DNA of 64,000 nucleotides from a bacterium (GCA_020852295.1 JADZBC010000016.1:294-64293), one strand, 5' to 3'. Shown: positions 1-19,513, numbered from the stretch's first letter. A program made the numbers and translations. Notes: generated by a model from the sequence alone, not told the origin.

Positions 1-3000
1 TCATCAGATGGGTCTCTCGCGACAGCCCATCTTATTGCCTTTAACCAAGTCAGTAACCCAAACTTACGGGTTAGCGCAGATGGAAATTTCATCTACGTCG
101 CAGATGCCTACAATTTATACAAATATGATGTCGCACAGGATGCCACAAATTCAGTGGGAGTGTCGGCTCAAACTAGGTTGAATATTGCCGACTCACGCAC
201 GGCTCGTGATCAGATGTCGCTGAACCCGGCCGAAACACGACTCTACCTCGGTGGTGGCGACAAGATTGAGATATTTGATGTCACTTCAAACACTCCAGTA
301 TCTCTCGGCCACATGGACAGCGCTGCAGCCAATCCACGCCATGATCTTGTGTTTAGTGCCGACGGTAAACGGGCCTTTATGGCCTACGCTGCGCCGGTCA
401 ATAGTCAGCCGGGCATCGTCGTGGCGGAGTTTGATACTCAAAATAATCTCCCAATGGGCGTACTGAACGTCGACAAAAATCCTCTCACCGGAGCCGGCCT
501 AGTCCTATCCAATAACGTCACCGTTGTGGAATCAGCTACAGTTTCTTTCGACGTCAATCAACCAGTTATCTACGATACGAATGGTAGCTTTGAGTTCATC
601 AAGAACAATCCAACTACTCAAGATGTTGCAACCCGCTACGCCCTCGGCGCCCTGTCAATAAACGTGACTGGTGGCAATGTGCCAGATGGTATGACATTTG
701 GAATCTGTAATTACGGCCCCGAACAAAGACCCTGTTTCCAAGGTACTCCAGTCACGCCCGGAAGCTACACGTTTACTGCATCCATATCAGATGGCATCAC
801 GAACTCCGAGAAAGAATTCAATGTGACGATCAATAACGGCATCGAGTTTCTCAATCCAAACAACGAGTCACCCAACATCCAAACGACAACCGGCGTAACT
901 GGCCAGTCTTACTCGGCGACATTCAGTGTACGTCATCGAGTGGGTAACAGCACCATCTCCTTGATTAATGGCACCCTGCCCCCTGGTCTCAACTTCACCC
1001 AGGTTGATAATGACACGGCCACCATTACCGGGACGATTGACCAGAATCAGCCAATCGAAGGTGTATGTTTCACGTTACAAGCCACCGATGACTACAACTC
1101 AAACGAGCAGGGTTTCTGCATGAATATTGTCGCCACCCCATTGAGTATCACGACCGGTTCACTCCCTGATGGAACATTCACTACGCCATATAACCAAACT
1201 GTCTATACTGCTGGGGGCGATGCTCCGACAAGCTTTAGTGTCATAAGCGGTAGTCTACCAAGTGGGCTCGAACTCGACAGCGGCACTGGCGTGATATCTG
1301 GCACACCATCATCGCCGGGAACCTATACATTTACTATCCGCGCCACCGATCGTACGGGTAGTGTTGAGCAAGAGTACGTGCTGGTCATTCAAAGTGGGGT
1401 GAACAACAACGCCGAGATCACCACTACAAGTTTATCCCGTGGACGCATCAACATCCGCTACACCGGCGACTACGTGCAGCGTATTCAGGCCGCCAACTTC
1501 ACGGGCGACGTATCTTGGTCGGTGGTGACTGGAGACCTCCCGGCCGGTCTGAGTCTCTACCAAGATGGCAATGACGCCATCATCGACGGTACGCCAACCG
1601 AGTCGGGGATCTTTACCTTTACGGTCGCCGCGAGTGATGGCATCAATGACCGCACCAAAGAACTCAGTATCCGCATAGATCCAAACCCACCTGAGCCAGC
1701 TCGTACCTCTGTAACCATCACCTCACCGACCAACGGCGTCTCACTGGGTGGCCCAACCCAACTTGTCACCGGTACCGCCTCTCCGGCTGGATCAATCATC
1801 CAGCTCTCTATCGACAATGATAACCCGTTTGACGTCCAGGTGGGCGGCGACGGTAAGTGGAGCTTTGAGGCCAAAGGACTGACCTCGGGCCCCCACACCT
1901 TCCGCGCGAGCATCAAACAATCGGCCCGCGAGTACGCCTACGTACCAAACACCTATACTCACGACGTCAATATCATCAACACCGTCACCGATACCGTCGT
2001 CGGTACTATAAAAACACCAAACCCCAATCTGTTTACGGGAGGCGCCTGGGCAACCAAAGATGGTAAAACCGTCTACGTTGGAGGAGGTGACGTTCAGACT
2101 GATCCGGTATTCTCAATTTCCACCCTCATCTACGAGCTCGACACTGCGACCAACACATTTAAGCGTTCGATTCGGCTCGAAAATGATCAATTGAATTCAT
2201 TTGTGATCGACGCCAGCGACCGCTATGCCTACACCTCAACAATCGACACTACAAACGGCACAAAGAAACTCGTTAAGATCGACCTCAAAAATATGCAGAT
2301 CGTGAAAACTACTACCGTGCCATCGCTTGGTAACTACAGTCCCTATTTGCCGTTCGGCTACAGTGCACTGTCTGATGACGAATCAAAGCTCTTTATTCCT
2401 TACAGTGCAAGTAATTTTGTAAGTATCGTTGACACGAATACCCTCACCGTCATCGGCAGCACCGACATCGGCCGTCCATCCATCCAGTTGCAGGCACTTC
2501 CTGACGATAAGATCGTAGCTATGCCTTTCCTGGAGGTCCCTACTGCCAATCCAGTTATTACAATCCTCAACCAAAGTGGACAGGTCGCATCAACTGTTAC
2601 GACAGATACTCAGGGCACCCAGGTGCTTTATCTTGGTTCACTGCTTTCGTCGGATAACCAATACATCATCAATAGATTTTCAATACCGTCCGAAAATCTC
2701 AATGGTATTTCTATTGCGAACCCAACTACCCTATCTAACGTCGGCGTACTGACCGGGATCGGTTTTGGCTTTGGCATGTCAGCCACTGCGGACAGCCAGA
2801 AAGTCTATGTCGTAAATGGCAACCGCGACCCAGTAGGTGGTGGCTTTGGCTGGGGCTCAGTCGATGTCATAAAAAATCCAACCGGCATGTTGGTTGGTAG
2901 TAAATACCCCATCCAAGTCGGCCTATTCACCCAGGCACTCGGTAACTGGATCGCCAATATACCCGAAACCACCATTAGTACCTCAACGTCAGTCAATATC

Positions 3001-4551
3001 TATGGTGGCGTCAAGCCAAGCTCAGGTGGCACAACCGTCATCACACTCCCCGGCTTTAGGTTGCCAAATATTAGCTTGCCCAACATCAAGCCATTCAACC
3101 TACCGTCTTACAACTTCAATCCAAACCTCAATCTGCCAAACCTCGCTCCAATCACTGGCCTACCAACTGACAAAGTATCAGTGAGCAAAACCAACGCTGG
3201 AGTTCTCGATAACCTGCTTGGTACGCTCAAAACCAGTGTCAGCCTGGTACCTACCAAGGTCGCGCTTGCCTTCCCGTACCTGATGCTACTGGTACTTATC
3301 GTCATGATCTTGAGCCTGCTCGCACAGACCCGCGACGAGCTCGAGAAAGCCCGTGAGATCAAGCGCATCATTGCCAAGCGCAAGAGCCTCGAAGAAGAGC
3401 GTAATAACTTCATTAGCCTCATCTCGCACTACCTCAATACACCAATTAGTATGATGCAAGGTGGAGTTGATCTGATCGCCACCCTCCAGCGCGCACCAAA
3501 GAGCATGACTGATAGCCTGCAAAAAACGCTCAGCTCACTCGGTCAGAAGATCAAGAGCATGCTGACAAGCACTGCCCAAAGCAGCTTGGACAAGCCGGTC
3601 GATACGAAAAACCCTATCATGATCAAGCCATACAAGTCATTTGCGGTGATGGCGCCCGTAATACTCGTGGCCGTCTTCACTGCTGCGACCAACTGGCTGT
3701 TCAACGCTGCAGGGGTCGTCGATATCTCGATCATCAATATCTTCACCCAAATCATGGCCTTTGCCCTACTGATCCAGGCGCTTTTCTCTACATACAAGCA
3801 CCACGAAAATGCCAAGCACAACCTTGCCCTCGCCCAAGCCTCGCTCGACAACGAGGTGACCATGGCACAGGCTCGCCTCCACTTCCTGAGTGGCTCAGTC
3901 GAAGAACTCAAGACTGAAGTAGCCGGGCTGCGACGCAATCTCCCTGGGCTGGCTGCCGCGCCAAATGCCAAGGCCGTAAAAGATGGTTATGCCCGCCTCC
4001 AGAGTATTCTAAGCCGGCTGCAGCTTTTGACCGAAATCGAACAAGACAAGCATCGTGGCGAGATCAAGAGCTTCAATCTCCGCCGCGCCGTCGAGAACGT
4101 CATAAGTCAGTACAAACCACAGTTGGCCGCTCGCAATATCACCGTCGATATCGACGTCACCAAGTCGCTCTACATCAAGCAAGATCAGCAAATGCTCGAG
4201 CTAGTCATCAGCTCTCTGATCGATAATGCGATCAAATTTGTGCCAAAATCTGACGGCTACATCAAGATCGCCTCACGCGTCAACAAGGGTCGTATCAGCT
4301 TGACGGTCAGCGACAACGGCGCTGGTATCGCCAAGACCAAGCTCAAGCAGCTCTTTAAGCCATTCTCGCGAGCCGAAAGCGCCCTCCGCTTCAACTACGA
4401 AGGCCTTGGACTCAGTCTCTACCTCGACAAAGTCATCGTCGAAAAGCTCGGTGGAACTATCCAGATTGAATCAAGTAAAGGTAGTGGCACGACTGTCACC
4501 ATCGACCTTTCACCGCAACACAAACCAGTCAGCACGCCAAAAAAACGCTAA
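1..4551 (+). CDS. Giant membrane sensor histidine kinase, 5'-truncated at the window edge: large ectodomain, TM segments, C-terminal HisKA-like helix plus HATPase_c
   Basis: Frame 1 is open from nt 1, so the ORF continues upstream. N-terminal YVTN-type beta-propeller-like repeats (e.g. DGKRAFMAYAA, GKTVYVGGG, SDRYAYTSTID). Several putative-Ig-like repeats (GSLPSGL...GTPSSPGTYTFT). TM helix ALAFPYLMLLVLIVMILSLLA followed by an H-box-like SHYLNTPI, then two more TM helices. C-terminus has N-box DNAIKF, G1 DNGAGI and G2 GLGLSL of a HATPase_c domain. Confidence 0.75.
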   Translation, partial: SSDGSLATAHLIAFNQVSNPNLRVSADGNFIYVADAYNLYKYDVAQDATNSVGVSAQTRLNIADSRTARDQMSLNPAETRLYLGGGDKIEIFDVTSNTPVSLGHMDSAAANPRHDLVFSADGKRAFMAYAAPVNSQPGIVVAEFDTQNNLPMGVLNVDKNPLTGAGLVLSNNVTVVESATVSFDVNQPVIYDTNGSFEFIKNNPTTQDVATRYALGALSINVTGGNVPDGMTFGICNYGPEQRPCFQGTPVTPGSYTFTASISDGITNSEKEFNVTINNGIEFLNPNNESPNIQTTTGVTGQSYSATFSVRHRVGNSTISLINGTLPPGLNFTQVDNDTATITGTIDQNQPIEGVCFTLQATDDYNSNEQGFCMNIVATPLSITTGSLPDGTFTTPYNQTVYTAGGDAPTSFSVISGSLPSGLELDSGTGVISGTPSSPGTYTFTIRATDRTGSVEQEYVLVIQSGVNNNAEITTTSLSRGRINIRYTGDYVQRIQAANFTGDVSWSVVTGDLPAGLSLYQDGNDAIIDGTPTESGIFTFTVAASDGINDRTKELSIRIDPNPPEPARTSVTITSPTNGVSLGGPTQLVTGTASPAGSIIQLSIDNDNPFDVQVGGDGKWSFEAKGLTSGPHTFRASIKQSAREYAYVPNTYTHDVNIINTVTDTVVGTIKTPNPNLFTGGAWATKDGKTVYVGGGDVQTDPVFSISTLIYELDTATNTFKRSIRLENDQLNSFVIDASDRYAYTSTIDTTNGTKKLVKIDLKNMQIVKTTTVPSLGNYSPYLPFGYSALSDDESKLFIPYSASNFVSIVDTNTLTVIGSTDIGRPSIQLQALPDDKIVAMPFLEVPTANPVITILNQSGQVASTVTTDTQGTQVLYLGSLLSSDNQYIINRFSIPSENLNGISIANPTTLSNVGVLTGIGFGFGMSATADSQKVYVVNGNRDPVGGGFGWGSVDVIKNPTGMLVGSKYPIQVGLFTQALGNWIANIPETTISTSTSVNIYGGVKPSSGGTTVITLPGFRLPNISLPNIKPFNLPSYNFNPNLNLPNLAPITGLPTDKVSVSKTNAGVLDNLLGTLKTSVSLVPTKVALAFPYLMLLVLIVMILSLLAQTRDELEKAREIKRIIAKRKSLEEERNNFISLISHYLNTPISMMQGGVDLIATLQRAPKSMTDSLQKTLSSLGQKIKSMLTSTAQSSLDKPVDTKNPIMIKPYKSFAVMAPVILVAVFTAATNWLFNAAGVVDISIINIFTQIMAFALLIQALFSTYKHHENAKHNLALAQASLDNEVTMAQARLHFLSGSVEELKTEVAGLRRNLPGLAAAPNAKAVKDGYARLQSILSRLQLLTEIEQDKHRGEIKSFNLRRAVENVISQYKPQLAARNITVDIDVTKSLYIKQDQQMLELVISSLIDNAIKFVPKSDGYIKIASRVNKGRISLTVSDNGAGIAKTKLKQLFKPFSRAESALRFNYEGLGLSLYLDKVIVEKLGGTIQIESSKGSGTTVTIDLSPQHKPVSTPKKR

Positions 4552-4773
4552 CTATTGCTGCGCTATCTGATCGGCGCGCTGAATTGCGTCAACATAAATT
4601 GTGCGAACTTGATCTACTTTTTGTAGAGCCCTGTCAGTATTCGACTTTAAGTATTGTGCGTAACCACAGATAACCACAAGTACGATAACGAGCTTTATTT
4701 TCCAGGCCATCGCCTTCCCCACGTATACGCAACTATCCTAGGACCGACGGCAAACTTATGCAAGCATAGCTAG

Positions 4774-6207
4774 TTATGATTCGATCGGCAGACTCGATTG
4801 GGCCGAGCGTTCGAACTCAATCCGCTTCACTTCAGCAGCACGCTCTGCCAAATCGATTGGGTATTCCCCCGTAAAACAAGCCAAGCAAAGCGACTCGGCG
4901 GGCCGATCAATGGCGCCGAGCATGCCTTCGATCGACATATACCCCAGACTGTCAGCTCCGATCTCGGCTGCAACTTGCTGGGTCGAATGCAAACGCCCAG
5001 CGATGAGCTTGGTCTGATCAGGTGTATTGATGCCGTAGAAATCAGGATACAGCACTGGGGGTGAACTCACTCGGACATGAACCTCACGCGCGCCCGCCTC
5101 GCGCACCATCGCTACAATCTGTTTTGTGGTTGTACCACGCACGATCGAATCATCCACCAGGACGACCCGGCGATCTTTAACCACCTCAGGTAGTGGGTTG
5201 AGCTTCATCTGAACCGCCCGTTCGCGCAATTGCTGACCAGGGCTAATGAAGGTTCGGTGGATGTAGCGATTCTTGATAAGGCCATGGTCAAACTCGATAT
5301 TGAGCGCCTCGGCATAACCCAATGCCGCCGGAATCGAGGAATCAGGTACCGGAATCACAACATCGGCCTCAACCGGCTCTTCAAGCGCCAGAGTGTGTCC
5401 AAGCCGGCGACGGACTTCATTGACGCGCTGTCCCTGAAGTAAGCTATCTGGGCGCGCGAAGTAAATATATTCAAAAATCTCGAGCTTTTCTTTCGCTGGA
5501 CGAACGATGGTACTCGTCAGCTCGCCATCAATTATCTCGATAAGCTCTCCAGGCAGCACATCGCGCTCAAATTGAGCGCCAATAATATCAAAGGCACAGG
5601 TTTCGGACGCCACCACATAGCCTCCATCGGCTAGTCGCCCAATCGAGAGTGGCCGAATGCCATGTTCATCCCGAAAAGCGATCAAGCTATCACGAGTCAG
5701 CAGCACACAAGAAAAAGCGCCGGTAAATAGTGGCCAGACTTCACGTACTGCTTCGTGCGTGGTTTTTCCATGGTAGCGCCAGTATCGGATTGCATCCGCC
5801 ATCATCTCCGTGTCATTGCTGCCACGCTTGAAGACTTTGCGCTCCATAAGATAGTTTTTGAGTGCCTTCGTCGAAGGAATATTGCCATTGTGTGCCAGCG
5901 CAATCAGGTCGTCACTGCGCAAAACCGGCTGTACATGTGCATCATGCGCAGCGCCAGATGTTGCATATCGGTTGTGCCCAACGGCCGCAAACCCTTTTAG
6001 CTGATCAAGCGTAGCATCACTATAGACCTGAGCCACGAGCCCTGGCCCAACATGAGAACGAAACTGTTCGCCATCGGTAACTACAATACCTGAACTCTCT
6101 TGGCCACGGTGCTGAAGCGCAGATAGGCCATAGTAAGTAAGACGCGCCACATCTGATTTTGGCGCGTAAACTGCAAACACCGCACATTTTTCTGTGAGTT
6201 CACCCAT
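4774..6207 (-). CDS. purF: Amidophosphoribosyltransferase (glutamine-PRPP amidotransferase), class-II Ntn amidotransferase plus PRTase domain
   Basis: PRPP-binding motif VVLVDDSIVRGTT. N-terminal MGELTEKCAVF carries the Cys that would be exposed by a short propeptide. C-terminal CLACF cysteines as in Fe-S PurF. The ORF-track N-terminal extension (to 6321) overlaps tRNA-Pro, so I place the start at the ATG at 6207. Confidence 0.7.
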   Translation of the reverse strand: MGELTEKCAVFAVYAPKSDVARLTYYGLSALQHRGQESSGIVVTDGEQFRSHVGPGLVAQVYSDATLDQLKGFAAVGHNRYATSGAAHDAHVQPVLRSDDLIALAHNGNIPSTKALKNYLMERKVFKRGSNDTEMMADAIRYWRYHGKTTHEAVREVWPLFTGAFSCVLLTRDSLIAFRDEHGIRPLSIGRLADGGYVVASETCAFDIIGAQFERDVLPGELIEIIDGELTSTIVRPAKEKLEIFEYIYFARPDSLLQGQRVNEVRRRLGHTLALEEPVEADVVIPVPDSSIPAALGYAEALNIEFDHGLIKNRYIHRTFISPGQQLRERAVQMKLNPLPEVVKDRRVVLVDDSIVRGTTTKQIVAMVREAGAREVHVRVSSPPVLYPDFYGINTPDQTKLIAGRLHSTQQVAAEIGADSLGYMSIEGMLGAIDRPAESLCLACFTGEYPIDLAERAAEVKRIEFERSAQSSLPIES

Positions 6208-6251
6208 TAGCTTTAGTGTACTACGATCTTGGGATTGAATATAGATGAGAT

Positions 6252-6327
6252 TGGTCAGGGTGACAGGACTTGAACCTGCGACCTCACGGCCCCCAGCCGT
6301 ACGCGCTACCAGCTGCGCCACACCCTG
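6252..6327 (-). tRNA. tRNA-Pro (anticodon GGG), CCA encoded
   Basis: Hand-folded cloverleaf: 7-bp acceptor CAGGGTG/CACCCTG, D-stem GCGC/GCGC, anticodon stem TACGG/CCGTG, loop CTGGGGG with G37, T-loop TTCAAGT; total 76 nt. Confidence 0.8.
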
Positions 6328-6409
6328 ATAAAGATATTGTACTATGTTTCTCGATCAAAAATAGCTTTCAACTTTACATGATTGTCATGCTAAGGCATAA
6401 TACTTATGT

Positions 6410-6952
6410 ATGTTTAAGGTTGTTAAATCGCTGGAAGCACTCGAGATAGTGGGCCAAAAGAACGTCAGCTCACTCTCTGAGTTGGTGGACCACAAGCAGC
6501 TTCGATCGGTCTTTGCCACCAGCTCCGCTGGGGCGACCCGCCGTCGCATCATTGATACAATGGCAATTCTGTCGCGGCAGGGCTTTGTCTCGGTTGGCCA
6601 GCTCGACGGCGAAAAGATCTATAAGCTCTCAGCCAAAGGCAAAAAACATCTAGCCACATATAGTATCCTCAAGACGGGTGTGGTTCGGCCCGCTCGCTGG
6701 GATGGTAACTGGTACCTGGTCACGTTTGATATTCCGGAGCGCCAGAAGGTTGCCCGCAATAGTCTTATCAGTCATCTGAAAAATCAGGGTTTTATCAATT
6801 ACACCAAGGGTATCTGGATTCTTCCGTATAATCCGAAACGTTTCTTGACTGATCTCGCCCAGCATCTCGGTCTTACGTCCCAGATCAAGCTTATTGAAGC
6901 CCGCAAAATCGACGACGAGGCAAGATATAAGCGTCACTTCCGGCTCAAATAA
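6410..6952 (+). CDS. Hypothetical protein: N-terminal wHTH-like region and C-terminal Cas2/VapD-like or PaaX-like segment
   Basis: C-terminal segment WYLVTFDIPERQKVARNSLISHLKNQGFINYTKGIWILP follows the Cas2/PaaX_C-like pattern (hydrophobic-x-YDI...R...L...G...Q.SV). No Cas1 or CRISPR array nearby. Confidence 0.35.
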   Translation: MFKVVKSLEALEIVGQKNVSSLSELVDHKQLRSVFATSSAGATRRRIIDTMAILSRQGFVSVGQLDGEKIYKLSAKGKKHLATYSILKTGVVRPARWDGNWYLVTFDIPERQKVARNSLISHLKNQGFINYTKGIWILPYNPKRFLTDLAQHLGLTSQIKLIEARKIDDEARYKRHFRLK

Positions 6953-7161
6953 AAAACAGGCACCTTGGGCGCCTGAGAATGAATATAATGCCGGCTCCGC
7001 TCAAGAACCGCGTTCGTCACAACTCTTCCTGGACCACGCCAGGTGGGTGTCCGCAGCATGCACGCCTATAGCGAGCAGCAATCTAGGTCTCCCAAAATGA
7101 TACTTAAGCAGAAAAGTTGCGACGTTAAAGTGCGAGAGCAGCAGAGCTTACGCTCAGTATA

Positions 7162-7797
7162 TCATAAAATACCGCGACCCAGCAGGAGTGAGGCAAGGCC
7201 ACCAATGATACCCCCGAGGACTGGCTGCAAGAAGCTATAGAACAAGAAGAAGATGAAAAATACGCCGATTAGTCCGGTTGATTCAAACCGATCCATAGCA
7301 TCGGCCAGCGGATCGGGCGCAATTGCATAAATCAGCCGTGAACCGTCCAGGGGTGGGATCGGGATCATGTTAAAAACAAAAAAGCCCAGGTTAATCAGTA
7401 CGAAACCGACCAATATCTCATAGCCGAGCCCCGTGATTGCGAAGACACGCAGATAGATTGCCACAAACGCCGCCATCAAGAAGTTACTCAGCGGACCAGC
7501 AAACGCCACCATCGCAGCTCCGAATTTGCCGTATTTGACCGCATACGGGTTGAATGGTACTGGCTTAGCGGCTCCGAACACAATTGGTGAGCCAACCAGG
7601 ATGAGGATAATCGGCAACAGGAGTGTCAGGAAGGGATCAATGTGCGCCATCGGATTAAGCGTCAGTCTACCCTCTCGCTTCGCGGTCACATCTCCAAGGG
7701 CATGGCCTGCCCAAGCATGGGAAAACTCGTGAACCGTGATCACGATACCGACGATTCCGATATAAGCTAGGATGCTAATGAGGTTAAGATTTGCCAT
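7162..7797 (-). CDS. Site-2 protease family (M50) zinc metalloprotease, multi-pass membrane
   Basis: HEFSH (HExxH) motif inside the first TM region; several hydrophobic helices; size typical of short M50 proteases. Confidence 0.7.
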   Translation of the reverse strand: MANLNLISILAYIGIVGIVITVHEFSHAWAGHALGDVTAKREGRLTLNPMAHIDPFLTLLLPIILILVGSPIVFGAAKPVPFNPYAVKYGKFGAAMVAFAGPLSNFLMAAFVAIYLRVFAITGLGYEILVGFVLINLGFFVFNMIPIPPLDGSRLIYAIAPDPLADAMDRFESTGLIGVFFIFFLFYSFLQPVLGGIIGGLASLLLGRGIL

Positions 7798-8691: not shown

Positions 8692-9753
8692 TCAGGTGTT
8701 TCGCGAGCTATCTACCGGAGTAGCACGCAACCTTGGGTGGTTTGCAATAACATCCTCGGCGACCACAGCGATTACTGCTGCAACTGGAGCTGCTAGAAGC
8801 ACCCCGATAAATCCAAGCAGCTTGCCACCAACTAATACTGCTGTGAATATTACAATAGGTGGTACGCCAAGCGCGCGTTTCATAACTTGCGGCGTTATGA
8901 TATTACCCTGGAACTGCTGCATGAGCAGATAACCGAGTGCAACCAGGGCGGCTTGCGTCGGGGAACCTGTCGTAAATGCAACGAGCACGGCGGGTAATGC
9001 ACCGAGGTAGGCTCCAAGCAGTGGCACTAACTCCATAATGCCTGCGATGAGCGCTAACGTAAGCGCGTAGTCCACACCAAGCACCGTCAGGATGATCAAA
9101 GAGAGAATGAAAATTGATAATGACAGCAGTGCCTGGCCCCGAAGCCACCCCCCGAGCCTTGAGGATATGCGTAATCCCAAATCGACGATACGTTTCTGTA
9201 GGCTTTTGTCTGGAACGAGCTCAACGACACTCATGCCGAGTTTTTTTCCGCCAATGAGCATATAGAAGGTCAGTACAAGAAAAGTCAAAAAGCCAAATAT
9301 ACTGCCGAACACACCGAAGGTCAGTGAGAGGGCTTGGGTGTTGTACTGATCACCAATGTTGGTTGCTGCCCGACCAACCCGTCGCCAGATGTCCTCCAGC
9401 ACCGGCTGCCCGGTTATGGTTTGTTGAATGCGCGCTTGATAGGTCGGAATATTCTGCGAGATTGTATTGATTTGCGCCGTCACTGCTGGCACAAGCAAGT
9501 AAACTGCCAGGCCGATCAGCGAAATAAAGGCGAGATAGATTGATACAATCGCCAGCCAGCGTGGAACGCCGAGGCGGCTGATTGCCTTGACGGATGGATC
9601 AAGTGCGGCCGCCACGATCATACAGAGAAACAGCAGCACCAAGATATCAGCTACCTGCCAAGCGAGCCAGATTGCGCCTAGGAAAAGAAAAAGATACGCG
9701 AAGCTTGATGCCGAGATTCGTATTGTAGTTGTAGAATTTGACTGGTTAGTCAC
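8692..9753 (-). CDS. AI-2E family (PerM/UPF0118) membrane transporter
   Basis: About eight TM helices and the characteristic MELVPLLGAYLGALPAVLVAF segment. Confidence 0.7.
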   Translation of the reverse strand: MTNQSNSTTTIRISASSFAYLFLFLGAIWLAWQVADILVLLFLCMIVAAALDPSVKAISRLGVPRWLAIVSIYLAFISLIGLAVYLLVPAVTAQINTISQNIPTYQARIQQTITGQPVLEDIWRRVGRAATNIGDQYNTQALSLTFGVFGSIFGFLTFLVLTFYMLIGGKKLGMSVVELVPDKSLQKRIVDLGLRISSRLGGWLRGQALLSLSIFILSLIILTVLGVDYALTLALIAGIMELVPLLGAYLGALPAVLVAFTTGSPTQAALVALGYLLMQQFQGNIITPQVMKRALGVPPIVIFTAVLVGGKLLGFIGVLLAAPVAAVIAVVAEDVIANHPRLRATPVDSSRNT

Positions 9754-10459
9754 GTCTTATCTGGGCAGCAAAACTGGCTGCTTGCTCCGCGGTTATCTCA
9801 GCACTGGGTGCTGATACGTTTATGGTGTGCGCGGCGCCCATATCGTCACTATCGGCTTCTTCGTCACTTTTCTTAAAAACTTCAAGCTGATCGAGCAGGA
9901 TGATCTTTTTTGCATCAAGGATGTCCGATAAAAAGCGATCATTGAGGTTGCGACGGTAATCAAAGTCTTCTATCCGCATACAGGTATAGTTCAGTTCACG
10001 CGCCATGTCGCTTTCGAGTTCACCGATCAGATGCGACAGCTTAGTTTTATTAACATCGCCAACGATAAATATGTCGATCATCTGATTACTACCTCGAACA
10101 AATGCCCCAGACAAAAAGACCATCTTAACGTTTCCAGCTTTCATGATGCGCTTGAGAATCTGATCCTCTTCTTTGGTCTCCTTGATCTCTTTTGTCTTGG
10201 CCGGAATCTTTGAGAAGATCGACTGGAGTTCGTTATAAAACTTATATTTTGTGTTGACCTCGTAGTACAGACGATTCGACTGACTAACAGATTTTACGAT
10301 TCCGATTGTGAGCAAGTTCTGCAGTTCACGACGAACTGAGTTGATCTGCTCGTTAATTTTACGGGTGATCTCTCGCACATAAAACGGCCGCTCGGGATTG
10401 TTATAAAACAAGCTGAGAAGCTTGACGCGTGTCTTTGAGCCAAAAAGTTGATCAAACAT
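9746..10459 (-). CDS. wHTH transcriptional-regulator-like protein fused to a Pol-beta-type nucleotidyltransferase (MNT-like) domain
   Basis: N-terminal ERPFYVREITRKINEQINSVRRELQNLLTIGIV reads as a wHTH. Central VFLSGAFVRGSNQMIDIFIVGDVN matches the GS...D.D nucleotidyltransferase fold. Confidence 0.5.
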   Translation of the reverse strand: MFDQLFGSKTRVKLLSLFYNNPERPFYVREITRKINEQINSVRRELQNLLTIGIVKSVSQSNRLYYEVNTKYKFYNELQSIFSKIPAKTKEIKETKEEDQILKRIMKAGNVKMVFLSGAFVRGSNQMIDIFIVGDVNKTKLSHLIGELESDMARELNYTCMRIEDFDYRRNLNDRFLSDILDAKKIILLDQLEVFKKSDEEADSDDMGAAHTINVSAPSAEITAEQAASFAAQIRRD

Positions 10460-10588
10460 TATGCTGATTTCGCCTCCAGAATAATTGTGTCCATTGGCTT
10501 CAATTTAACCACCAATTAACTCGATTATAAACCTAATGCCATGACAAATCTAGCACCGAACACATTTTTTTACATGCAGTTTTGAGCG

Positions 10589-11314
10589 TTATTGGGGGCG
10601 CTTTGAGGCAAGCTCTGAAGCCTTTTTTTCTAGCGAGTCATCGAGCTCCGTAAGTACGGCTTCGTAGCCCGCTCGAGCAAGCGCAGCGGAAATCAAGAAG
10701 TCGGCGACGGCCGGATTTTTTGGCAAGAATGAGCCGTGAAGATATGTACCAATCGCGTTTTTGTACAATGCGCCCTCGACACCATCCTCGCCATTATTAC
10801 CCCCGCCCTGCACAACTTGACCAAGCGGCTCAAGGCTCGCTGCAAGTTTCGTCAGGCCACTATGATTCTCAAACCCAACGAGTTTCCCAAAGCGTTGACT
10901 ACGAACTACAACATTACCAATTAGCCGTCGGTTTGAGGCATCGGTAGCGGCATTAAACACGCCAATTCCCGGTAACTTTTTACCGGCGCTCGTCTTGAAG
11001 TAATGGCCAAAAAGCTGGTAGCCCCCACAGATTACCAGTGCAGGCAACCCAGCCTCGATCGAAGCCTTGATTTGGTGGCCTTTCTGAAAAAGATCATCAG
11101 CAACGAGCTCTTGCCCTCGATCTTGCCCACCGCCCATAAACAGCAGGTCATAATCCTCGGGTAGCTTCATGCCAACACCAACTGGCACAACTTCAATATC
11201 GATACCGCGCCACCGAGCACGCTGCTGTAAACATAATACATTGCCTCGGTCCCCATAAAGATTCATAAGATCAGGATAGAGATGGACAAGCTTAAGTTTA
11301 TGTTTCGACTTCAT
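10589..11314 (-). CDS. gatD: Lipid II isoglutaminyl synthase, glutaminase subunit (CobQ/GATase-1 type)
   Basis: GATase1-like LVICGGYQLFGHYF with the catalytic Cys. Its start overlaps the stop of the upstream Mur-ligase-family gene, as in characterised murT-gatD pairs. Confidence 0.7.
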   Translation of the reverse strand: MKSKHKLKLVHLYPDLMNLYGDRGNVLCLQQRARWRGIDIEVVPVGVGMKLPEDYDLLFMGGGQDRGQELVADDLFQKGHQIKASIEAGLPALVICGGYQLFGHYFKTSAGKKLPGIGVFNAATDASNRRLIGNVVVRSQRFGKLVGFENHSGLTKLAASLEPLGQVVQGGGNNGEDGVEGALYKNAIGTYLHGSFLPKNPAVADFLISAALARAGYEAVLTELDDSLEKKASELASKRPQ

Positions 11315-12672
11315 TTCCAGTAGTCCTCCATTTCGGTTTCCTTAACGAGAAAACGACGGATCTCTAGCATAGCCGTATAGGTTGGCAGGATATATACCGG
11401 CTCGCCCTCCTTTGTGACGTCAATGGCGCGGTCAAGACAAGCCGTTAGCTCATCGACGACCTGACCTGTCTTACCGGCATATTTGAGCCTCAATGCCATA
11501 TCGTAGCGCCTGAGTCCGCCAACAATTATCCTGCCCGAACGAATATCCTCTATAGCTGCATCCCACAGCCATGAAACGTCACGACCGTCGGCAAAGTTGT
11601 CATTAATAGCCAAGACAAGAGTCTGCTTTTTATCTTGTAAGTATGTTTGGATTGCCTGATTGAAGCCAGTTGGATTCTTGATCAAGACTATCACGACATC
11701 TCGATCCCTGTAGCGAATTTTCTCGTAGCGCCCGAAAGCGGCGGTGCTGTTTTTTAAGACTTTTGTTGTACTTTTCTCATCAATTCCCTGCGTTTCAGCT
11801 ACGGCAATGGCGGCTATTGCATTGTATATGTTGTATATACCCGGTAGACTCAGATCAATTTCCTGACTCTGGGCGGTTTCAGACTGCAGCATGAAGCGTG
11901 AGCCCTCAGTGTCAAAATTTTTCATTTTTATGAGCTCCCAGTCCGGCTTTGGCCGCACGAAATCACCATTCTTACTCTTATAAACTCCCATGTGACTAAA
12001 GTACTTCTTAGAGTAAACTAGGGGTGCATTGGATATCGGACTATGCACAGAGTCGGCAGTATAGTCATGCTTGAGAACCGGACCATTAAAGTCAGAAATC
12101 CCGAAAAACATATAAGTATTGCCGTCATTGTCCGCTAAGCTGGCGACGAGCGGATCATCGGCATTGAGTAGTATTGTCGCACCCTGTTGACTGGCAAGGC
12201 CTTTTTTAATCATCTGGGCGGTGGTCTGCAGCTCACCATAGCGATCGAGCTGATCCCGGAACAGATTGGTCACTAAAATGGTTCGCGCGTTGAGCTGAGA
12301 CAATACTGCAGGAATACTTGCCTCATCAACCTCAAGGAGCGCTACCTGAGCATCGATCCGACCGCGCCAATTGGCTCGCCGAAGCATTTCTGAGACAATA
12401 CCTCGCTCCAGATTTGACCCGGTCTTGTTGTGAAGATATGAGATGTCACTCACCTCTAAAATGTCGGCGATCAGTTTCGTTGTAGTGGTTTTGCCATTCG
12501 TGCCTGTCACAACGATAATTCCATCGGGGAAATTGTTCCAACAGAGATGTAATAATATTTGATCGTCTATCTTCTTAGCTATTAGTCCAGGCAAGGCAGC
12601 TCCACCGGTGCCGGTCAGGCGATTGAGCTTGAAAATTATCTTCGCTGATAGTATGGCGATAATCTGTAGCAT
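11311..12672 (-). CDS. murT: Lipid II isoglutaminyl synthase, Mur-ligase-family subunit
   Basis: Mur ligase central-domain P-loop IIVVTGTNGKTTTTKLIADIL and a DUF1727-like C-terminus; translationally coupled to gatD. Confidence 0.7.
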   Translation of the reverse strand: MLQIIAILSAKIIFKLNRLTGTGGAALPGLIAKKIDDQILLHLCWNNFPDGIIVVTGTNGKTTTTKLIADILEVSDISYLHNKTGSNLERGIVSEMLRRANWRGRIDAQVALLEVDEASIPAVLSQLNARTILVTNLFRDQLDRYGELQTTAQMIKKGLASQQGATILLNADDPLVASLADNDGNTYMFFGISDFNGPVLKHDYTADSVHSPISNAPLVYSKKYFSHMGVYKSKNGDFVRPKPDWELIKMKNFDTEGSRFMLQSETAQSQEIDLSLPGIYNIYNAIAAIAVAETQGIDEKSTTKVLKNSTAAFGRYEKIRYRDRDVVIVLIKNPTGFNQAIQTYLQDKKQTLVLAINDNFADGRDVSWLWDAAIEDIRSGRIIVGGLRRYDMALRLKYAGKTGQVVDELTACLDRAIDVTKEGEPVYILPTYTAMLEIRRFLVKETEMEDYWK

Positions 12673-12686
12673 AGCTATATTGTATA

Positions 12687-13604
12687 TCAGTCCTTGATTG
12701 AAAGGTAATCAGTAATCACCTCTAGGGCATATCTATCTGATTCACACCAAACAATGTATGGATTGCGCCTTAGCCAGGTCATCTGACGTCGCGCTAGCTG
12801 ATAGTCGTCACGGGTAAATCGCTCGCGTAGTTCGTCTAAAGTTATGCGACCAGACAAATATTCCACAGCATGACGATAGCCAATGATTGATAGTTGGGGA
12901 CAATCCTTGCCGTATCGATTTATTAATTTCTCAACCTCTTGAATAAAACCATTGTTCAACATTTCATCAACGCGAATTGCTATTTTTTGCTTTAAAATAG
13001 GCATTTCTGGTTTTTTTGCGACAATAATTCCACCAATTTTTAATTGCTGGCGATCGGCCTGTATCGCGGGTCCGAGGCGCAATATCTTGATGAGTCTTTG
13101 TCGATTTTTCCGTTCCGATAGCGGTACTGCATCAGCATATCGCTCAGCAACAAGATTTGATAATTCAGCAGTGCTCAATGTATCAAAATTATCAACTACA
13201 TTCGAAGAGGCTTGGCTGCGAAAAGTATAGCCAAACAACAAAGCGTCGATATATAAGCCGGTGCCACCAACTATGATGGGCAGGTGCCCACGCTGCCTTA
13301 TCTGATCGATAACGTGCTCTGCATCCCACTGGAAGTCAGCCGCACTATAATTCTCACCCGGATTACGGATATCAAGCAGATGATGCGGGACACCGAACTG
13401 TTCCTCGAGACTCGGTTTGGCCGTACCAATATCGAAGCCTCTATAGATCGTGCGTGAATCCGCTGCAATCACTTCACCGTTATAGCGTTTTGCGACCTCG
13501 ATAGCGAGCGCTGTTTTACCGCTTGCGGTCGGCCCTGCAATTACTACGAGTTTAGAGCTGTGCCCGGGATGAAACTTCATCTGTAACTCGTTCGACAAAA
13601 TCAT
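12687..13604 (-). CDS. miaA: tRNA dimethylallyltransferase
   Basis: P-loop VVIAGPTASGKTALAIEVAK and DSRTIYRGFDIGTAKPS motifs. The start may be an internal Met, since the N-terminus overlaps the thrS 3' end. Confidence 0.8.
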   Translation of the reverse strand: MILSNELQMKFHPGHSSKLVVIAGPTASGKTALAIEVAKRYNGEVIAADSRTIYRGFDIGTAKPSLEEQFGVPHHLLDIRNPGENYSAADFQWDAEHVIDQIRQRGHLPIIVGGTGLYIDALLFGYTFRSQASSNVVDNFDTLSTAELSNLVAERYADAVPLSERKNRQRLIKILRLGPAIQADRQQLKIGGIIVAKKPEMPILKQKIAIRVDEMLNNGFIQEVEKLINRYGKDCPQLSIIGYRHAVEYLSGRITLDELRERFTRDDYQLARRQMTWLRRNPYIVWCESDRYALEVITDYLSIKD

Positions 13605-15369
13605 CGACGCTGATCACTCCAAGGTCACCCTCGCCATATTTCCGAACGGCAACAGCCTGCGCGGTTGCTTCTTTCTCGCCCACGACCAGCGTGTAGGGTA
13701 CCTTCATGAGCTCAGCGGAGCGTATTCTTTTGCCAAGGGACTCACTATCGCTATCCAGGACTACGCGTACGCCTTTTTGCTTAAGAGCCTCAACCACCTT
13801 TTGAGCGTAATCACTAAACTGATCAGATACTGGCAAAACACGAACCTGTTCAGGTGCTAGCCATACCGGAAAAGCACCAGCCACGTGCTCAATATATACC
13901 GAGAGAAAGCGCTCGATGGAGCCGAGCAGCGCAAAATGAATCATTACCGGCGTTTTGGCTGAGCCATCACTGTCGACGTATGTCAATCCGAATCGTTCTG
14001 GCTGCACAAAATCCAACTGTGGAGTCGCAAGCTGGTGCTCCCGACCGAGCGCATCGGTTGCCATAAAATCGATTTTTGGCCCATAAAACGCAGCCTCACC
14101 CTGCTCTTCGTAGTAATCGAGCTTGAGTTCAGTCACGACGTCGCGCAGGATTTGCTCAGCCTGTCGCCATAGTCCCGCATCACCAAGATACGCATCAGAA
14201 TCATCACGCAGCGACAGCCGGGCGCGGAGAGGCATACCAAGCGTTGTGTAAAATTCTTTTGTGATGCGCCCCAACATCATAAGGACGTCCTTAATCTGAT
14301 CTGGAGTACAGAATGTATGGCTATCATCTTGTGTGATCGAACGCACTCGTGACAAGCCATTGAGCTCCCCTGACTTCTCGTCGCGATAAACCGTTGTGGT
14401 CTCCATGTATTTTATTGGGAGGTCTTTATAGCTCCGTGGCTTCGAAGCATAAATCTGCTGGTGGTGCGGACAATTCATTGGCTTCAAAACGAGCTCGTCT
14501 GATGTTTCCTGGCTCTTAACGAGCATCAGTTCATCACCAAACTTCGCCCAGTGACCAGACGTTTCGTAGAGATGCTTTTTCGTCAGATGAGGCACCCAAA
14601 CCTTTTCAAAGCCCTCGGCGGTGCGCAAGGCCTGCGAATAAGCGTTGAGCTCTTCGCGCAGTATCGTGCCGCGAGGTGTAAAGAGCGGTAAACCTGAGCC
14701 AACCTGTTCGGAAAAAGTGAAGAGATCGAGTTCACGCCCTAGCTTACGATGATCGCGTTTCAATGCCTCCTCCTGGTTTGCCAGAAATTCATCTAGTTGC
14801 GGCTGATTCTCAAATGCTACGCCATAAACCCGCTGCATCTGTGGATTCTTGTCATTGCCTCGCCAGTACGCACCCGACACCTTCGTAAGCTTAAATGCAC
14901 CAACCTGACCTGCTGTATCGACGTGCGGACCCCTACAAAGATCTACAAAATCCCCAGTCTTGTAGATAGAAACCGTGTCGACCTTGGCAGCACCACTCTC
15001 GATGCCAAGTTCACTTGAACCAACATCTTTGAGGTTTGTAGTGCCTTTCTCGGCCAGATCTCGTAGCAGCTCTACCTTGTAGAGCTGATTGTGGCTCGTA
15101 AAATAGTCTATTGCTTCTTGTATCGGCCAATCTTCATGCTCAAAGGCCACGTCAGACTCAACGATTTTTTTCATGTCGGACTCAATCGATACAAGGTCAT
15201 CAGTTGATAACGGCTTCTCAAGGTCAATATCATAGTAAAAACCATTGTCGATAACTGGTCCAACGCCAAACTTGGCCTCTGGGTGCCGCTTAGCGATCGC
15301 TGCTGCCATAATATGCGCCAAGCTGTGTCGCATGGCGTGAAGCTGCTGATCTTGATCTGAAAGACTCAT
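13552..15369 (-). CDS. thrS: Threonyl-tRNA synthetase (short form lacking the N-terminal TGS domain)
   Basis: Editing-domain HxxxH (MRHSLAHIMAAA), class-II motifs and an anticodon-binding C-terminus; 605 aa. Confidence 0.85.
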   Translation of the reverse strand: MSLSDQDQQLHAMRHSLAHIMAAAIAKRHPEAKFGVGPVIDNGFYYDIDLEKPLSTDDLVSIESDMKKIVESDVAFEHEDWPIQEAIDYFTSHNQLYKVELLRDLAEKGTTNLKDVGSSELGIESGAAKVDTVSIYKTGDFVDLCRGPHVDTAGQVGAFKLTKVSGAYWRGNDKNPQMQRVYGVAFENQPQLDEFLANQEEALKRDHRKLGRELDLFTFSEQVGSGLPLFTPRGTILREELNAYSQALRTAEGFEKVWVPHLTKKHLYETSGHWAKFGDELMLVKSQETSDELVLKPMNCPHHQQIYASKPRSYKDLPIKYMETTTVYRDEKSGELNGLSRVRSITQDDSHTFCTPDQIKDVLMMLGRITKEFYTTLGMPLRARLSLRDDSDAYLGDAGLWRQAEQILRDVVTELKLDYYEEQGEAAFYGPKIDFMATDALGREHQLATPQLDFVQPERFGLTYVDSDGSAKTPVMIHFALLGSIERFLSVYIEHVAGAFPVWLAPEQVRVLPVSDQFSDYAQKVVEALKQKGVRVVLDSDSESLGKRIRSAELMKVPYTLVVGEKEATAQAVAVRKYGEGDLGVISVDDFVERVTDEVSSRAQL

Positions 15370-18031: not shown

Positions 18032-18054
18032 ATGCCCATCGGGGCATTTTTTTA
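18032..18054 (+). terminator. Rho-independent terminator after tRNA-Val
   Basis: Hairpin ATGCCC-ATCG-GGGCAT followed by TTTTTTT. Confidence 0.6.
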
Positions 18055-18765
18055 TTCTGAAATCATTCGCTGCATCATGCAGAAAAATAAACACTTCGCC
18101 TGATGAAAATTGGTAAGATCTATGCCGGTCTGAGCTTGAATACGGCGCAGTCGGTATGACAGCGTATTGCGATGCGTATTGAGTCGACGAGCCGCCTGCG
18201 CCAAGTTGAGATCGGCACTAAGAACCGCCTCCATGGTGCGCTTCAGGACAGGATCAGCCCAGATAGGCCCGCCGATAAGACCCAATAATTGTCGTGTATC
18301 CTCCGGCGCCATGCCACTCATATTAAGCCAAGCTAATGCTGTCGTAAGCTCACTACAAACACCCTGCGCTGGTCGTGCCTCGTGCAGGCGAGCAAACAGC
18401 CTCAATACTACGCCAAGCTGATCATGCGTATATAGTTTTGAGTGCACGCAATAGATAGAGTGCCGATATCGCGCAAGAGCCTCCCCTATACTAGTTATGA
18501 CGCCATCTTGTTGTGCTGCATCAACCAGTAGCCAATAGCGTCGGCGATCTACTGTGTAGCCACCAATATGCATCGCAAAAGCACCTGAGTCCAGCATCCT
18601 TTCGATCTGCTGTTGTGCCTCACTAGACTGCACAGCCACCAACATAGGCCGGTATCGGTCCACCTCGGTAACTGCTGAGTTTAGAAAGTGCGCCAAATCA
18701 AGATCTGAGACTGGACTGTCTGGCTCAATTGCAGCCTGTACTAGTTCAAACGGTAGCCTAACCAC
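18052..18765 (-). CDS. PucR/CdaR-family transcriptional regulator (C-terminal HTH)
   Basis: C-terminal LNLAQAARRLNTHRNTLSYRLRRIQAQTGIDL matches the PucR-type HTH (HrNTl.YRL). Confidence 0.55.
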   Translation of the reverse strand: MVRLPFELVQAAIEPDSPVSDLDLAHFLNSAVTEVDRYRPMLVAVQSSEAQQQIERMLDSGAFAMHIGGYTVDRRRYWLLVDAAQQDGVITSIGEALARYRHSIYCVHSKLYTHDQLGVVLRLFARLHEARPAQGVCSELTTALAWLNMSGMAPEDTRQLLGLIGGPIWADPVLKRTMEAVLSADLNLAQAARRLNTHRNTLSYRLRRIQAQTGIDLTNFHQAKCLFFCMMQRMISE

Positions 18766-19513
18766 TTATCTTACCGACAATTAGCTCAGACAGTATAACT
18801 GCATCTACGAAATTTACTGGGTTTAAACCTGTTAGCTGATAAAGCTTGGTGAGACGATAAAGCACGGTGTTGCGATGTAGGCCAAGCTGACGAGCAGCGT
18901 CCGTCAGGTTCATGTTTTCATCCAAAAAACACTTCAAGGTAACAAGTAGTGTCTGATCACTGAGCCAAGCCGACGACACTTTCTTCTCTTCAGCTAGTGC
19001 TCCGTTCAGTATTGCACTCAACCCCTTGTACGATCGAGTTGCATGAAGCCTCTTACCAAAGATCATAGCTAAGCCTTCTTCCACCAGACTCGCTCGATAC
19101 ATTTCAGCAAGCCTCCGGAGCGACAACATCAATTCATTCGCCTTGTGTGACGAGCTGTTATTCCAGGTCAATATCAGATCATTTCCCAAGACCGAATGAA
19201 TTATCAACTGCTGCCGACCAGAAATTTTCCATCTTTTTTGTTGATTTATTTTCAACGTTTTTATCGGCATAGAGTCACTAATAACACCCTGTAAAATGAG
19301 CCTGCTTGAAGGCTTTAGACCAATCGAGAGTAGTGCAGCGTGGAGCTGGCGCTCTACTCTGCTCTGACGCCCGGTCGAGCATACAAGACTTGCCATCAAA
19401 ATCCGTATCTTGAGCTGCTCTTCAGTCGCTGGTTCGATGCGCTTTGCGTGCATCAAGCTACCTAGTGTGCGTTCACCCTGCCCAAACTTTCTTGCAATAG
19501 CAGTACTGGTCAT
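18758..19513 (-). CDS. PucR/CdaR-family transcriptional regulator (paralog of the upstream gene)
   Basis: C-terminal LTDAARQLGLHRNTVLYRLTKLYQLTGLNP. Confidence 0.55.
   Translation of the reverse strand: MTSTAIARKFGQGERTLGSLMHAKRIEPATEEQLKIRILMASLVCSTGRQSRVERQLHAALLSIGLKPSSRLILQGVISDSMPIKTLKINQQKRWKISGRQQLIIHSVLGNDLILTWNNSSSHKANELMLSLRRLAEMYRASLVEEGLAMIFGKRLHATRSYKGLSAILNGALAEEKKVSSAWLSDQTLLVTLKCFLDENMNLTDAARQLGLHRNTVLYRLTKLYQLTGLNPVNFVDAVILSELIVGKISG

Follow-up and report, generated by a model that had tools for sequence, protein, structure and literature searches.

The first 4551 nucleotides of a 64,000-nucleotide stretch of bacterial DNA (GCA_020852295.1, JADZBC010000016.1:294-64293; the whole stretch is called the window below) are occupied by a single open reading frame (ORF), which encodes the larger part of a giant sensor histidine kinase. 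Frame 1 is open throughout, ending in a TAA codon at 4549-4551, and the other two + strand frames are stop-rich over the same interval. A frameshift between the ectodomain-coding and kinase-coding parts was looked for and none was found; the two belong to one uninterrupted gene, as an earlier interpretation made from the DNA alone (the sequence-only reading) had supposed. The gene encodes two hairpins of the dimerisation and histidine phosphotransfer (DHp) type, A and B, separated by transmembrane (TM) helices, and a catalytic and ATP-binding (CA) domain. The features of this module, in nucleotides of the window and amino acid (aa) residues of the window protein, are as follows.

1-4551, +: ORF of 1,516 aa plus stop codon
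3259-3321, +: TM1, aa 1087-1107, running from outside to inside, its helix continuous into the H-box helix (Kyte-Doolittle maximum 2.76; AlphaFold2)
3343-3585, +: DHp-A, a complete HisKA-like hairpin, aa ~1115-1195 (Pfam HisKA, sub-threshold; family profile)
3424-3444, +: H-box SHYLNTP, the sole conserved H-box of the family
3427-3429, +: His1143, putative phospho-acceptor (conservation; DHp alignment)
3640-3786, +: TM2-TM3 hairpin, helices at aa 1214-1237 and 1242-1262, joined outside by a very short loop (hydropathy; AlphaFold2)
3787-4041, +: DHp-B, a degenerate DHp copy lacking the histidine, aa 1263-1347, leading into the CA domain (hhalign; Foldseek)
3901-3903, +: Glu1301, at the phospho-acceptor position of DHp-B (hhalign pairing with His1143)
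4183-4512, +: HATPase_c CA domain, aa 1395-1504 (Pfam PF02518, E = 5.3e-23; predicted local distance difference test score, pLDDT, 92-96)
4222-4239, +: N box, DNAIKF
4312-4329, +: G1 box, DNGAGI
4354-4371, +: F box, FKPFSR
4402-4419, +: G2 box, GLGLSL

The window protein is 100% identical to P0001 (MCC7289480.1, 1,613 aa, 'putative Ig domain-containing protein, partial [bacterium]'), which is truncated by its source contig just as the gene is by the window. The missing N-terminus was recovered from the 90% cluster of P0001, which also contains a full-length protein, P0511 (2,130 aa, ENA), and P0510 (MCC7289479.1), a 518-aa N-terminal fragment from a different contig of the same metagenome-assembled genome (MAG). 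Since P0510, two residues and P0001 together make up the full length, the gene is merely broken at a contig end. The expectation that the protein would exceed 1500 aa and be cut by the window start is thus borne out. The complete protein begins with a signal anchor, MQERT...RRFSWRIFLCSLLVLNNFVIIVNNLKAKA. Full-length homologues are present in independent samples (P0002, 2,110 aa, 60% identity; P0003, 2,163 aa, 53% identity) at syntenic loci, with a divergent gene for a HIT protein upstream and, in L001, where the contig reaches that far, purF and a PaaX-like gene downstream. The same architecture is therefore found in three independent assemblies with synteny kept. The best named relatives of the ThrRS encoded in the window (62-66% identity) are exclusively Candidatus Saccharibacteria, Saccharimonadales and Patescibacteria, and we therefore conclude that the organism is a saccharibacterium, a member of the candidate phyla radiation (CPR).

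The next gene downstream, purF, is convergent, and in the homologues the HIT gene upstream is divergent; the kinase gene is therefore monocistronic and an orphan. Five receiver-domain queries (phmmer, E <= 10) found no receiver domain anywhere in the 64-kb window, in agreement with the sequence-only reading, which had noted no response regulator downstream. At 12 of 13 related loci, too, the 8-10 kb around the gene lack a receiver domain, and the receiver at the single remaining locus belongs to a separate, canonical pair of histidine kinase and response regulator. Overall, we conclude that the gene is monocistronic and encodes an orphan sensor histidine kinase of ~2,130 aa, of which the window ORF covers the C-terminal ~71%.

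Membrane topology and the two hairpins

By hydropathy, the 1,516 residues contain three hydrophobic TM segments and no more, at 1087-1107, 1214-1232/1237 and 1242-1262. The H-box SHYLNTP (aa 1142-1148) falls between the first and the second, and the order of TM1, H-box helix, TM2, TM3, second helix and HATPase_c is that given by the sequence-only reading. Stretches rich in Lys and Arg directly follow TM1 and TM3, in the manner of the positive-inside rule, and the loop between TM2 and TM3 is shorter than about 10 residues. Together with the signal anchor, these features place the ectodomain outside the cell and everything after TM1, other than the tiny loop, inside, so that both hairpins and the CA domain are predicted to be cytoplasmic. 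The membrane hairpin itself is conserved: among 180 relatives, Pro1219 is kept in 171, Asn1231 in 125, Asn1246 in 124 and Gln1250 in 157, and the length of the stretch across the TM2-TM3 loop is constant in 178. Selection thus acts on the hairpin, which is more than a linker.

An AlphaFold2 model of the module (443 aa, with 39 homologues; pLDDT 81.8, predicted template-modelling score, pTM, 0.68) has a single unbroken helix at segment positions 12-88, running from TM1 through the H-box, and a return helix at 94-122, from which a poorly ordered linker leads to TM2 (141-164). A second unbroken helix, at positions 171-245, starts as TM3 and is followed by a return helix at 251-274 and then by the CA domain, which is modelled with high confidence.

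Hairpin A has the character of a complete DHp. A profile built from 27 sequences matches the DHp domains of EnvZ (E = 6.7e-8), CpxA and HK853 over both helices, with E values to 1e-5, and aligns His1143 with the acceptor histidine, His243 of EnvZ. In PDB searches, too, LEEERNNFISLISHYLNTPISMMQGG aligns with H-box helices, those of SrrB and WalK among them. In the 180 relatives, position 1143 is His in 177 and position 1148 is Pro in 178, while Tyr1144 (His+1) is Tyr in 174 and Thr1147 (His+4) is Thr in 175. The distance from His1143 to Asn1409 of the N box is 266 aa, which is also the family median, with one H-box per protein; the usual spacing in class I kinases is about 100-115 aa.

A second DHp-like hairpin lies within this interval. 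Comparison of the two hairpins by hhalign gave E = 5.7e-5 and, separately, E = 1.3e-6 with a probability of 91%, and pairs His1143 with Glu1301, from which we conclude that the H-box helix of A has a diverged copy in the first helix of B. The H-box duplication proposed in the sequence-only reading thus holds as far as the ancestry of the helix after TM3 is concerned, but the copy has no acceptor histidine: the residue in column 1301 across the 180 relatives is Ala, Glu, Thr, Ser, Asp, Gly, Gln or Ile, and never His. Glu1301 lies 108 aa before the N-box Asn, so the helix does stand at the canonical distance that had been noted for it. When the C-terminal part is aligned by sequence with solved kinases, the match starts only at the second helix of hairpin B, and a profile of hairpin B alone gave no significant DHp match in the PDB (best kinase E = 0.016). 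In structural comparison with Foldseek, ~233 columns comprising DHp-B and the CA domain align with the whole cytoplasmic DHp and CA core of HK853, and hairpin B is therefore a structurally complete DHp; its assignment derives from the profile-profile and structural evidence. The two hairpins reach a similar depth below the membrane, His1143 being 36 residues past the end of TM1 and Glu1301 39 past that of TM3. The HATPase_c domain, also recognised in the sequence-only reading, is intact, with the N, G1 and G2 residues invariant across the family and the N, G1, F and G2 boxes invariant or nearly so.

An alternative layout, in which α1 before TM2 and α2 after TM3 form one split DHp, was rejected because hairpin A matches solved DHps over both of its helices and because hairpin B with the CA domain superposes on a complete DHp and CA core. 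We conclude that a unit consisting of TM helix, stalk, α1, loop and α2 has been duplicated, copy A having kept the histidine and copy B the ATPase.

Proposed phosphorylation mechanism

The arrangement suggests that the protein is probably an orphan sensor histidine kinase in which the separated histidine of DHp-A is phosphorylated by the CA domain carried on DHp-B. As judged from the sequence and the models, the CA domain anchored on DHp-B would phosphorylate His1143 on DHp-A much as in the trans reaction of a normal kinase dimer. Since substrate helix and enzyme would be suspended from different TM helices at nearly equal depth, movement of TM1 against the TM2-TM3 hairpin, induced by a ligand or by contact, would gate the encounter of histidine and CA domain directly, and the phosphoryl group would then pass to a response regulator encoded elsewhere.

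Several observations weigh against this reading. Pfam HisKA matches aa 1134-1189 with E = 1.7e-3 and 18.8 bits, under its cut-off of 26.9. No partner response regulator was found at the loci described above. In a mean-field direct coupling analysis of 180 sequences (effective number of sequences ~175), aimed at contacts between hairpins A and B, the top couplings were gap or terminal artefacts and were discarded. Moreover, the residue at His+1 is Tyr in 167 of 176 family members, whereas among 81 ordinary kinases obtained from the same search as controls it is Glu in 74 and Asp in four. Willett and Kirby found that an acidic residue at His+1 is required for kinase but not for phosphatase activity, and that Thr or Asn at His+4 is required for phosphatase activity (PMC3510030). 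With Tyr in place of the acid needed for autokinase activity, His1143 may not undergo efficient autophosphorylation. Our caution on this point arises mainly because the Thr at His+4 is kept and the acid at His+1 is not, a combination which suggests, from sequence, an altered autokinase chemistry in which competence for phosphatase activity or phosphotransfer is kept.

As to how the two hairpins might be arranged, we tentatively consider that both hairpins of one chain may form an intramolecular four-helix bundle, a single-chain pseudo-dimer of DHps that has one histidine and a single ATPase. What is a transient asymmetry in ordinary dimers would then be hard-wired and phosphorylation would be fixed as a trans-type reaction. 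The signal would consist of TM1, linked to the ectodomain and bearing the substrate helix, sliding or rotating against TM3, which bears the enzyme, in a three-helix membrane bundle that may be held together by the conserved Pro, Asn, Asn and Gln residues.

A variant of the separated-histidine mechanism, which differs in quaternary structure, is a homodimer resembling CheA, in which DHp-B dimerises and holds the CA domain while DHp-A forms its own homodimeric bundle, phosphorylatable and docking the regulator, with no intramolecular bundle of A and B. Both hairpins do resemble complete dimerisation hairpins, and CheA sets a precedent for a histidine unit apart from the dimerisation unit that bears the CA domain. 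Nothing in the analysis speaks against it specifically; the equal depth of His1143 and Glu1301 and the tight link between TM2 and TM3 favour side-by-side packing, without proving it. We consider this variant rather unlikely. Less probable still is the proposal that His1143 is not autophosphorylated at all, the protein acting instead mainly as a phosphatase or phosphotransfer scaffold for a regulator that another kinase phosphorylates, or as an ATP-binding pseudokinase that anchors a giant adhesin. The tyrosine at His+1 and the orphan status of the gene would be in keeping with it, but the strict conservation of the N, G1, F and G2 boxes points to ATP turnover, and autophosphorylation is the simplest reason for a histidine to be so strongly conserved beside an intact CA domain.

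That there are two functional H-boxes, with the acceptor on the helix after TM3 (YKHHENAKHN...ARLHFLSG), which the sequence-only reading had singled out as a second His-containing helix, is very improbable. This helix is homologous to the H-box helix and correctly spaced from the N box, but its histidines are not conserved: among the 180 relatives the column of His1267 is mostly Asn and that of His1268 is His in only 28, and in an alignment of 39 sequences column 1273 is His in only five and column 1294 in only four (the window protein and its closest homologues), while the acceptor position is Glu1301, in a column that is never His. That the gene is a pseudogene, or an artefact in which adhesin and kinase genes were wrongly joined in assembly or annotation, is scarcely credible, since, although the NCBI MAG has the gene split over two contigs, the ORF is unbroken here and in full-length homologues of 2,110, 2,163 and 2,130 aa from independent samples, and other Saccharibacteria end ORFs of 2,262 to >3,000 aa with the same module.

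Relation to known kinases and distribution of the family

The window protein has several features of the class I HisKA/HATPase_c kinases (EnvZ, CpxA, HK853, WalK). Its HATPase_c domain contains the N, G1, F and G2 boxes, an H-box of the S-H-x-L-R-T-P type stands on a DHp hairpin of two helices, and a TM helix runs on without a break into α1 of the DHp. It departs from these kinases in that its acceptor histidine is carried by a hairpin which two TM helices and a DHp copy lacking this histidine separate from the CA domain, and the spacing is 266 rather than about 110 aa. His+1 is Tyr instead of Glu or Asp, three TM helices follow the ectodomain instead of one, and no regulator is adjacent. All the parts of a class I kinase are thus present, but the histidine does not lie on the CA-proximal DHp, and of the residues flanking it only the Thr at His+4 is retained, with no acid at His+1.

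In CheA, a class II kinase, the phospho-acceptor lies on a unit separate from the His-less dimerisation domain that bears the ATP-binding domain. Only this logic of a separated histidine is common to CheA and the window protein, which is not a member of the CheA family: in Pfam searches it has no Hpt, H-kinase_dim, CheW, P2 or P5/CheW-like domain, and its histidine unit is a HisKA-like hairpin anchored in the membrane on both sides, unlike the four-helix HPt bundle of CheA. DivL, in which the histidine is replaced by Tyr, and RetS, both among the structural neighbours, likewise have a CA-adjacent DHp without an acceptor histidine; unlike the window protein, they have no second, intact H-box in the chain. 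The monomeric HWE/HisKA2 kinase EL346 provides a precedent for a histidine kinase that need not be a symmetric homodimer (PMC10359499) and is relevant to the single-chain pseudo-dimer for that reason, but it is a soluble LOV kinase, belongs to another DHp subfamily and has just one DHp-like domain, with neither duplication nor TM insertion.

Intramembrane-sensing kinases of the BceS type share with the window protein two TM helices with a minimal outer loop directly before DHp and CA domain, and BceS (8g3a) is among its structural neighbours. BceS differs in having a single, His-bearing DHp and no ectodomain, whereas here the DHp after the membrane hairpin is His-less and the ectodomain is huge. 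The sole recurring neighbour of the family kinases, at three of 11 loci, is a gene for an ABC ATPase, which recalls the coupling of BceS to BceAB; the resemblance is weak, and no ABC transporter gene adjoins the kinase in the window.

L005 6578-7270, L006 15013-15777 and L007 1-705: ABC-transporter ATPase gene beside a family kinase

The distribution of the module was explored by an exhaustive phmmer search with its non-CA part only (aa 1080-1395, 316 aa). The order TM1, DHp-A with histidine, TM2, TM3, DHp-B without histidine and CA domain occurs in at least 331 clusters: the search recovered 536 cluster representatives at E <= 1e-3, of which 331 reach E <= 1e-10. Among the 150 matches listed, the module is always C-terminal, nearly all alignments span positions ~4-305, and the proteins range from 378 to 3,627 aa. 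With the 443-aa module as query, ~35 clusters were matched at 30-35% identity and 95-98% coverage, mostly proteins of 640-680 aa, one being named 'ATP-binding protein [Candidatus Saccharibacteria bacterium]'. In a pattern-based scan of 185,579 species-representative genomes, the full-module matches among those listed were confined to Saccharibacteria/Patescibacteria MAGs (L005-L013). The ectodomains are diverse, consisting of RCC1 and TIG, fn3 or He_PIG domains, or being absent, and the MAG ORFs that end in the module include one of 2,535 aa, an fn3-bearing one of 2,262 aa and one, with RCC1 propeller and TIG, of 3,066 aa or more.

The window protein fits this family: the non-CA module is present in full, the module is C-terminal, and TM1 and TM2 enclose an H-box of the HY type. 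The transmission module is therefore not a peculiarity of one protein, as the sequence-only reading implied, but that of a large conserved family with many different ectodomains, and the layout is common to hundreds of uncharacterised CPR proteins. In the databases its members are called 'ATP-binding protein', 'putative Ig domain-containing protein' or 'signal transduction histidine kinase'. HATPase_c is the only Pfam or NCBIfam model that matches the module at its curated cut-off, and none covers the region from TM2 to the end of DHp-B. In the literature on histidine kinases of Saccharibacteria or Patescibacteria and on tandem or paired DHps, we found no description of this architecture. One match to 'tandem DHp' was set aside, as the term there means DHp-CA tandems and not a duplicated DHp.

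Few bacterial sensors are as well understood as the histidine kinases. In their core, as a rule, the acceptor helix lies within the hairpin fused to the ATPase and the protein is a symmetric homodimer. The family breaks this rule: the hairpin is duplicated, the copy next to the enzyme has lost its histidine, the copies are separated by a membrane hairpin, and His+1 is Tyr. Should the mechanism proposed above be correct, these proteins would be a natural system for the study of asymmetric or trans autophosphorylation and of the coupling of TM helices to a kinase, with substrate and enzyme on separate anchors. Saccharibacteria are episymbionts with reduced genomes and few regulators. Kinase modules joined to ectodomains of up to ~3,000 aa suggest a receptor role, instead of passive adhesion, for some of the giant surface proteins, and the family members are concrete candidates for host-contact sensing. 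Given the episymbiotic lineage, it is plausible that the window protein is a receptor for host- or surface-derived cues, as the sequence-only reading had put forward. Should the single-chain pseudo-dimer be correct, the module would be the standard Saccharibacteria route for wiring giant surface proteins, usually read as host-attachment adhesins, directly to phospho-signalling.

Some further family members deserve mention. The closest short relative of the module, P0121 (497 aa, from outside the window; 60% identity), has no ectodomain; its N-terminus is multi-TM with a weak BlaR1/Peptidase_M56 match (E = 9e-5), so that the same output module is joined to a quite different membrane input. In L011 an ORF of at least 2,144 aa (1-6432), akin to the giant ectodomains, overlaps in another frame the start of an ORF encoding the kinase module (6300-7676); this reflects a frameshift error or a pseudogene, or else ectodomain and kinase are naturally encoded by separate genes there. 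In L006, a complete 799-kb Saccharibacteria chromosome, very large similar ORFs (3-1589 and 9439-15009) flank a 2,535-aa family kinase, suggesting a cluster of giant surface proteins.

Ectodomain and neighbouring genes

The part of the ectodomain that lies in the window comprises the following regions.

1-660, +: tail of an N-terminal β-propeller-like region, weakly supported and inferred
673-1920, +: Ig-like stalk of four He_PIG (dystroglycan/cadherin-like) domains followed by one Ig domain of the Big_7/Big_13 type (Pfam, NCBIfam)
1900-2985, +: YVTN-type β-propeller, ~28 predicted strands (NCBIfam, sub-threshold; PDB 1L0Q; AlphaFold2; Foldseek)
2986-3225, +: low-complexity tether rich in Pro, Asn and Leu, the last ~80 residues between propeller and TM1, predicted to be disordered

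No Pfam or NCBIfam model matches within nucleotides 1-660, and the assignment of a propeller there derives from weak matches to Lactonase, Beta-prop_THOC3 and Beta-prop_ACSF4 in full-length homologues and from the repeat-like character of the sequence. The stalk was recognised by Pfam He_PIG (E = 3.4e-26, four stretches, the best at aa 390-463), by Big_7 at aa 570-636 (Pfam, E = 1e-3) and by Ca_tandemer (NCBIfam, 1.2e-5); the Ig-like repeats of the sequence-only reading are thus present, although they number five in the window where about six had been estimated.

The YVTN-like propeller of that reading was recovered by several approaches. Residues 634-1080 give sub-threshold NCBIfam matches to YncE (1.1e-6), PQQ repeats (2.2e-6) and YVTN (TIGR02276, 5.5e-3), and the sequence matches 1L0Q in the PDB with E = 3.8e-5. 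An AlphaFold2 model of aa 634-1075, of moderate confidence with an input of only four sequences (pTM 0.68, pLDDT 65), has ~28 strands, the number expected for seven blades. Foldseek places 1L0Q, a YVTN propeller from an S-layer protein of an archaeon, first among the structural matches of this model (E = 1.7e-15, TMt 0.66), followed by other seven-bladed propellers; 1L0Q is also the best structural match of aa 634-995. The tether that follows is quasi-repetitive (LPNISLPNIKPFNLPSYNFNPNLNLPNL) and is modelled without secondary structure at a pLDDT of ~30. The folds of the ectodomain are thus like those of the YVTN/PKD archaeal S-layer protein 1L0Q and of He_PIG surface proteins, but these are structural or adhesive and, unlike the window protein, have no cytoplasmic signalling module.

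Downstream of the kinase gene, the long ORF of purF, 4774-6321 on the - strand (GVAQLVARTAGG...), overlaps a gene for tRNA-Pro(GGG) at 6252-6327 on the same strand, and the true start of purF must therefore be an internal codon, around MGELTEKCAVF.... The nearest gene resembling one for a transcription factor, 6410-6952 on the + strand and ~2 kb from the kinase, encodes a PaaX-like protein (PaaX_M, E = 1.8e-18), which is not a receiver-domain protein; its position is kept in L001. Further away, ~16 kb from the kinase, an ORF at 20878-22107 resembles by eye a permease of the MacB/FtsX type. Two adjacent paralogous regulators, each with a C-terminal helix-turn-helix of the PucR type (HTH_30, E ~1e-16), are encoded at 18052-19513 on the - strand, directly upstream of an ORF at 19575-20801 (- strand) whose N-terminus, YVDMDAFFASVEQ, resembles what we take to be a motif of Y-family DNA polymerases. 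At 10589-12672 on the - strand lie adjacent genes resembling by eye those for MurT (Mur-ligase-like) and GatD (a CobQ-type glutamine amidotransferase), a pair that amidates peptidoglycan.

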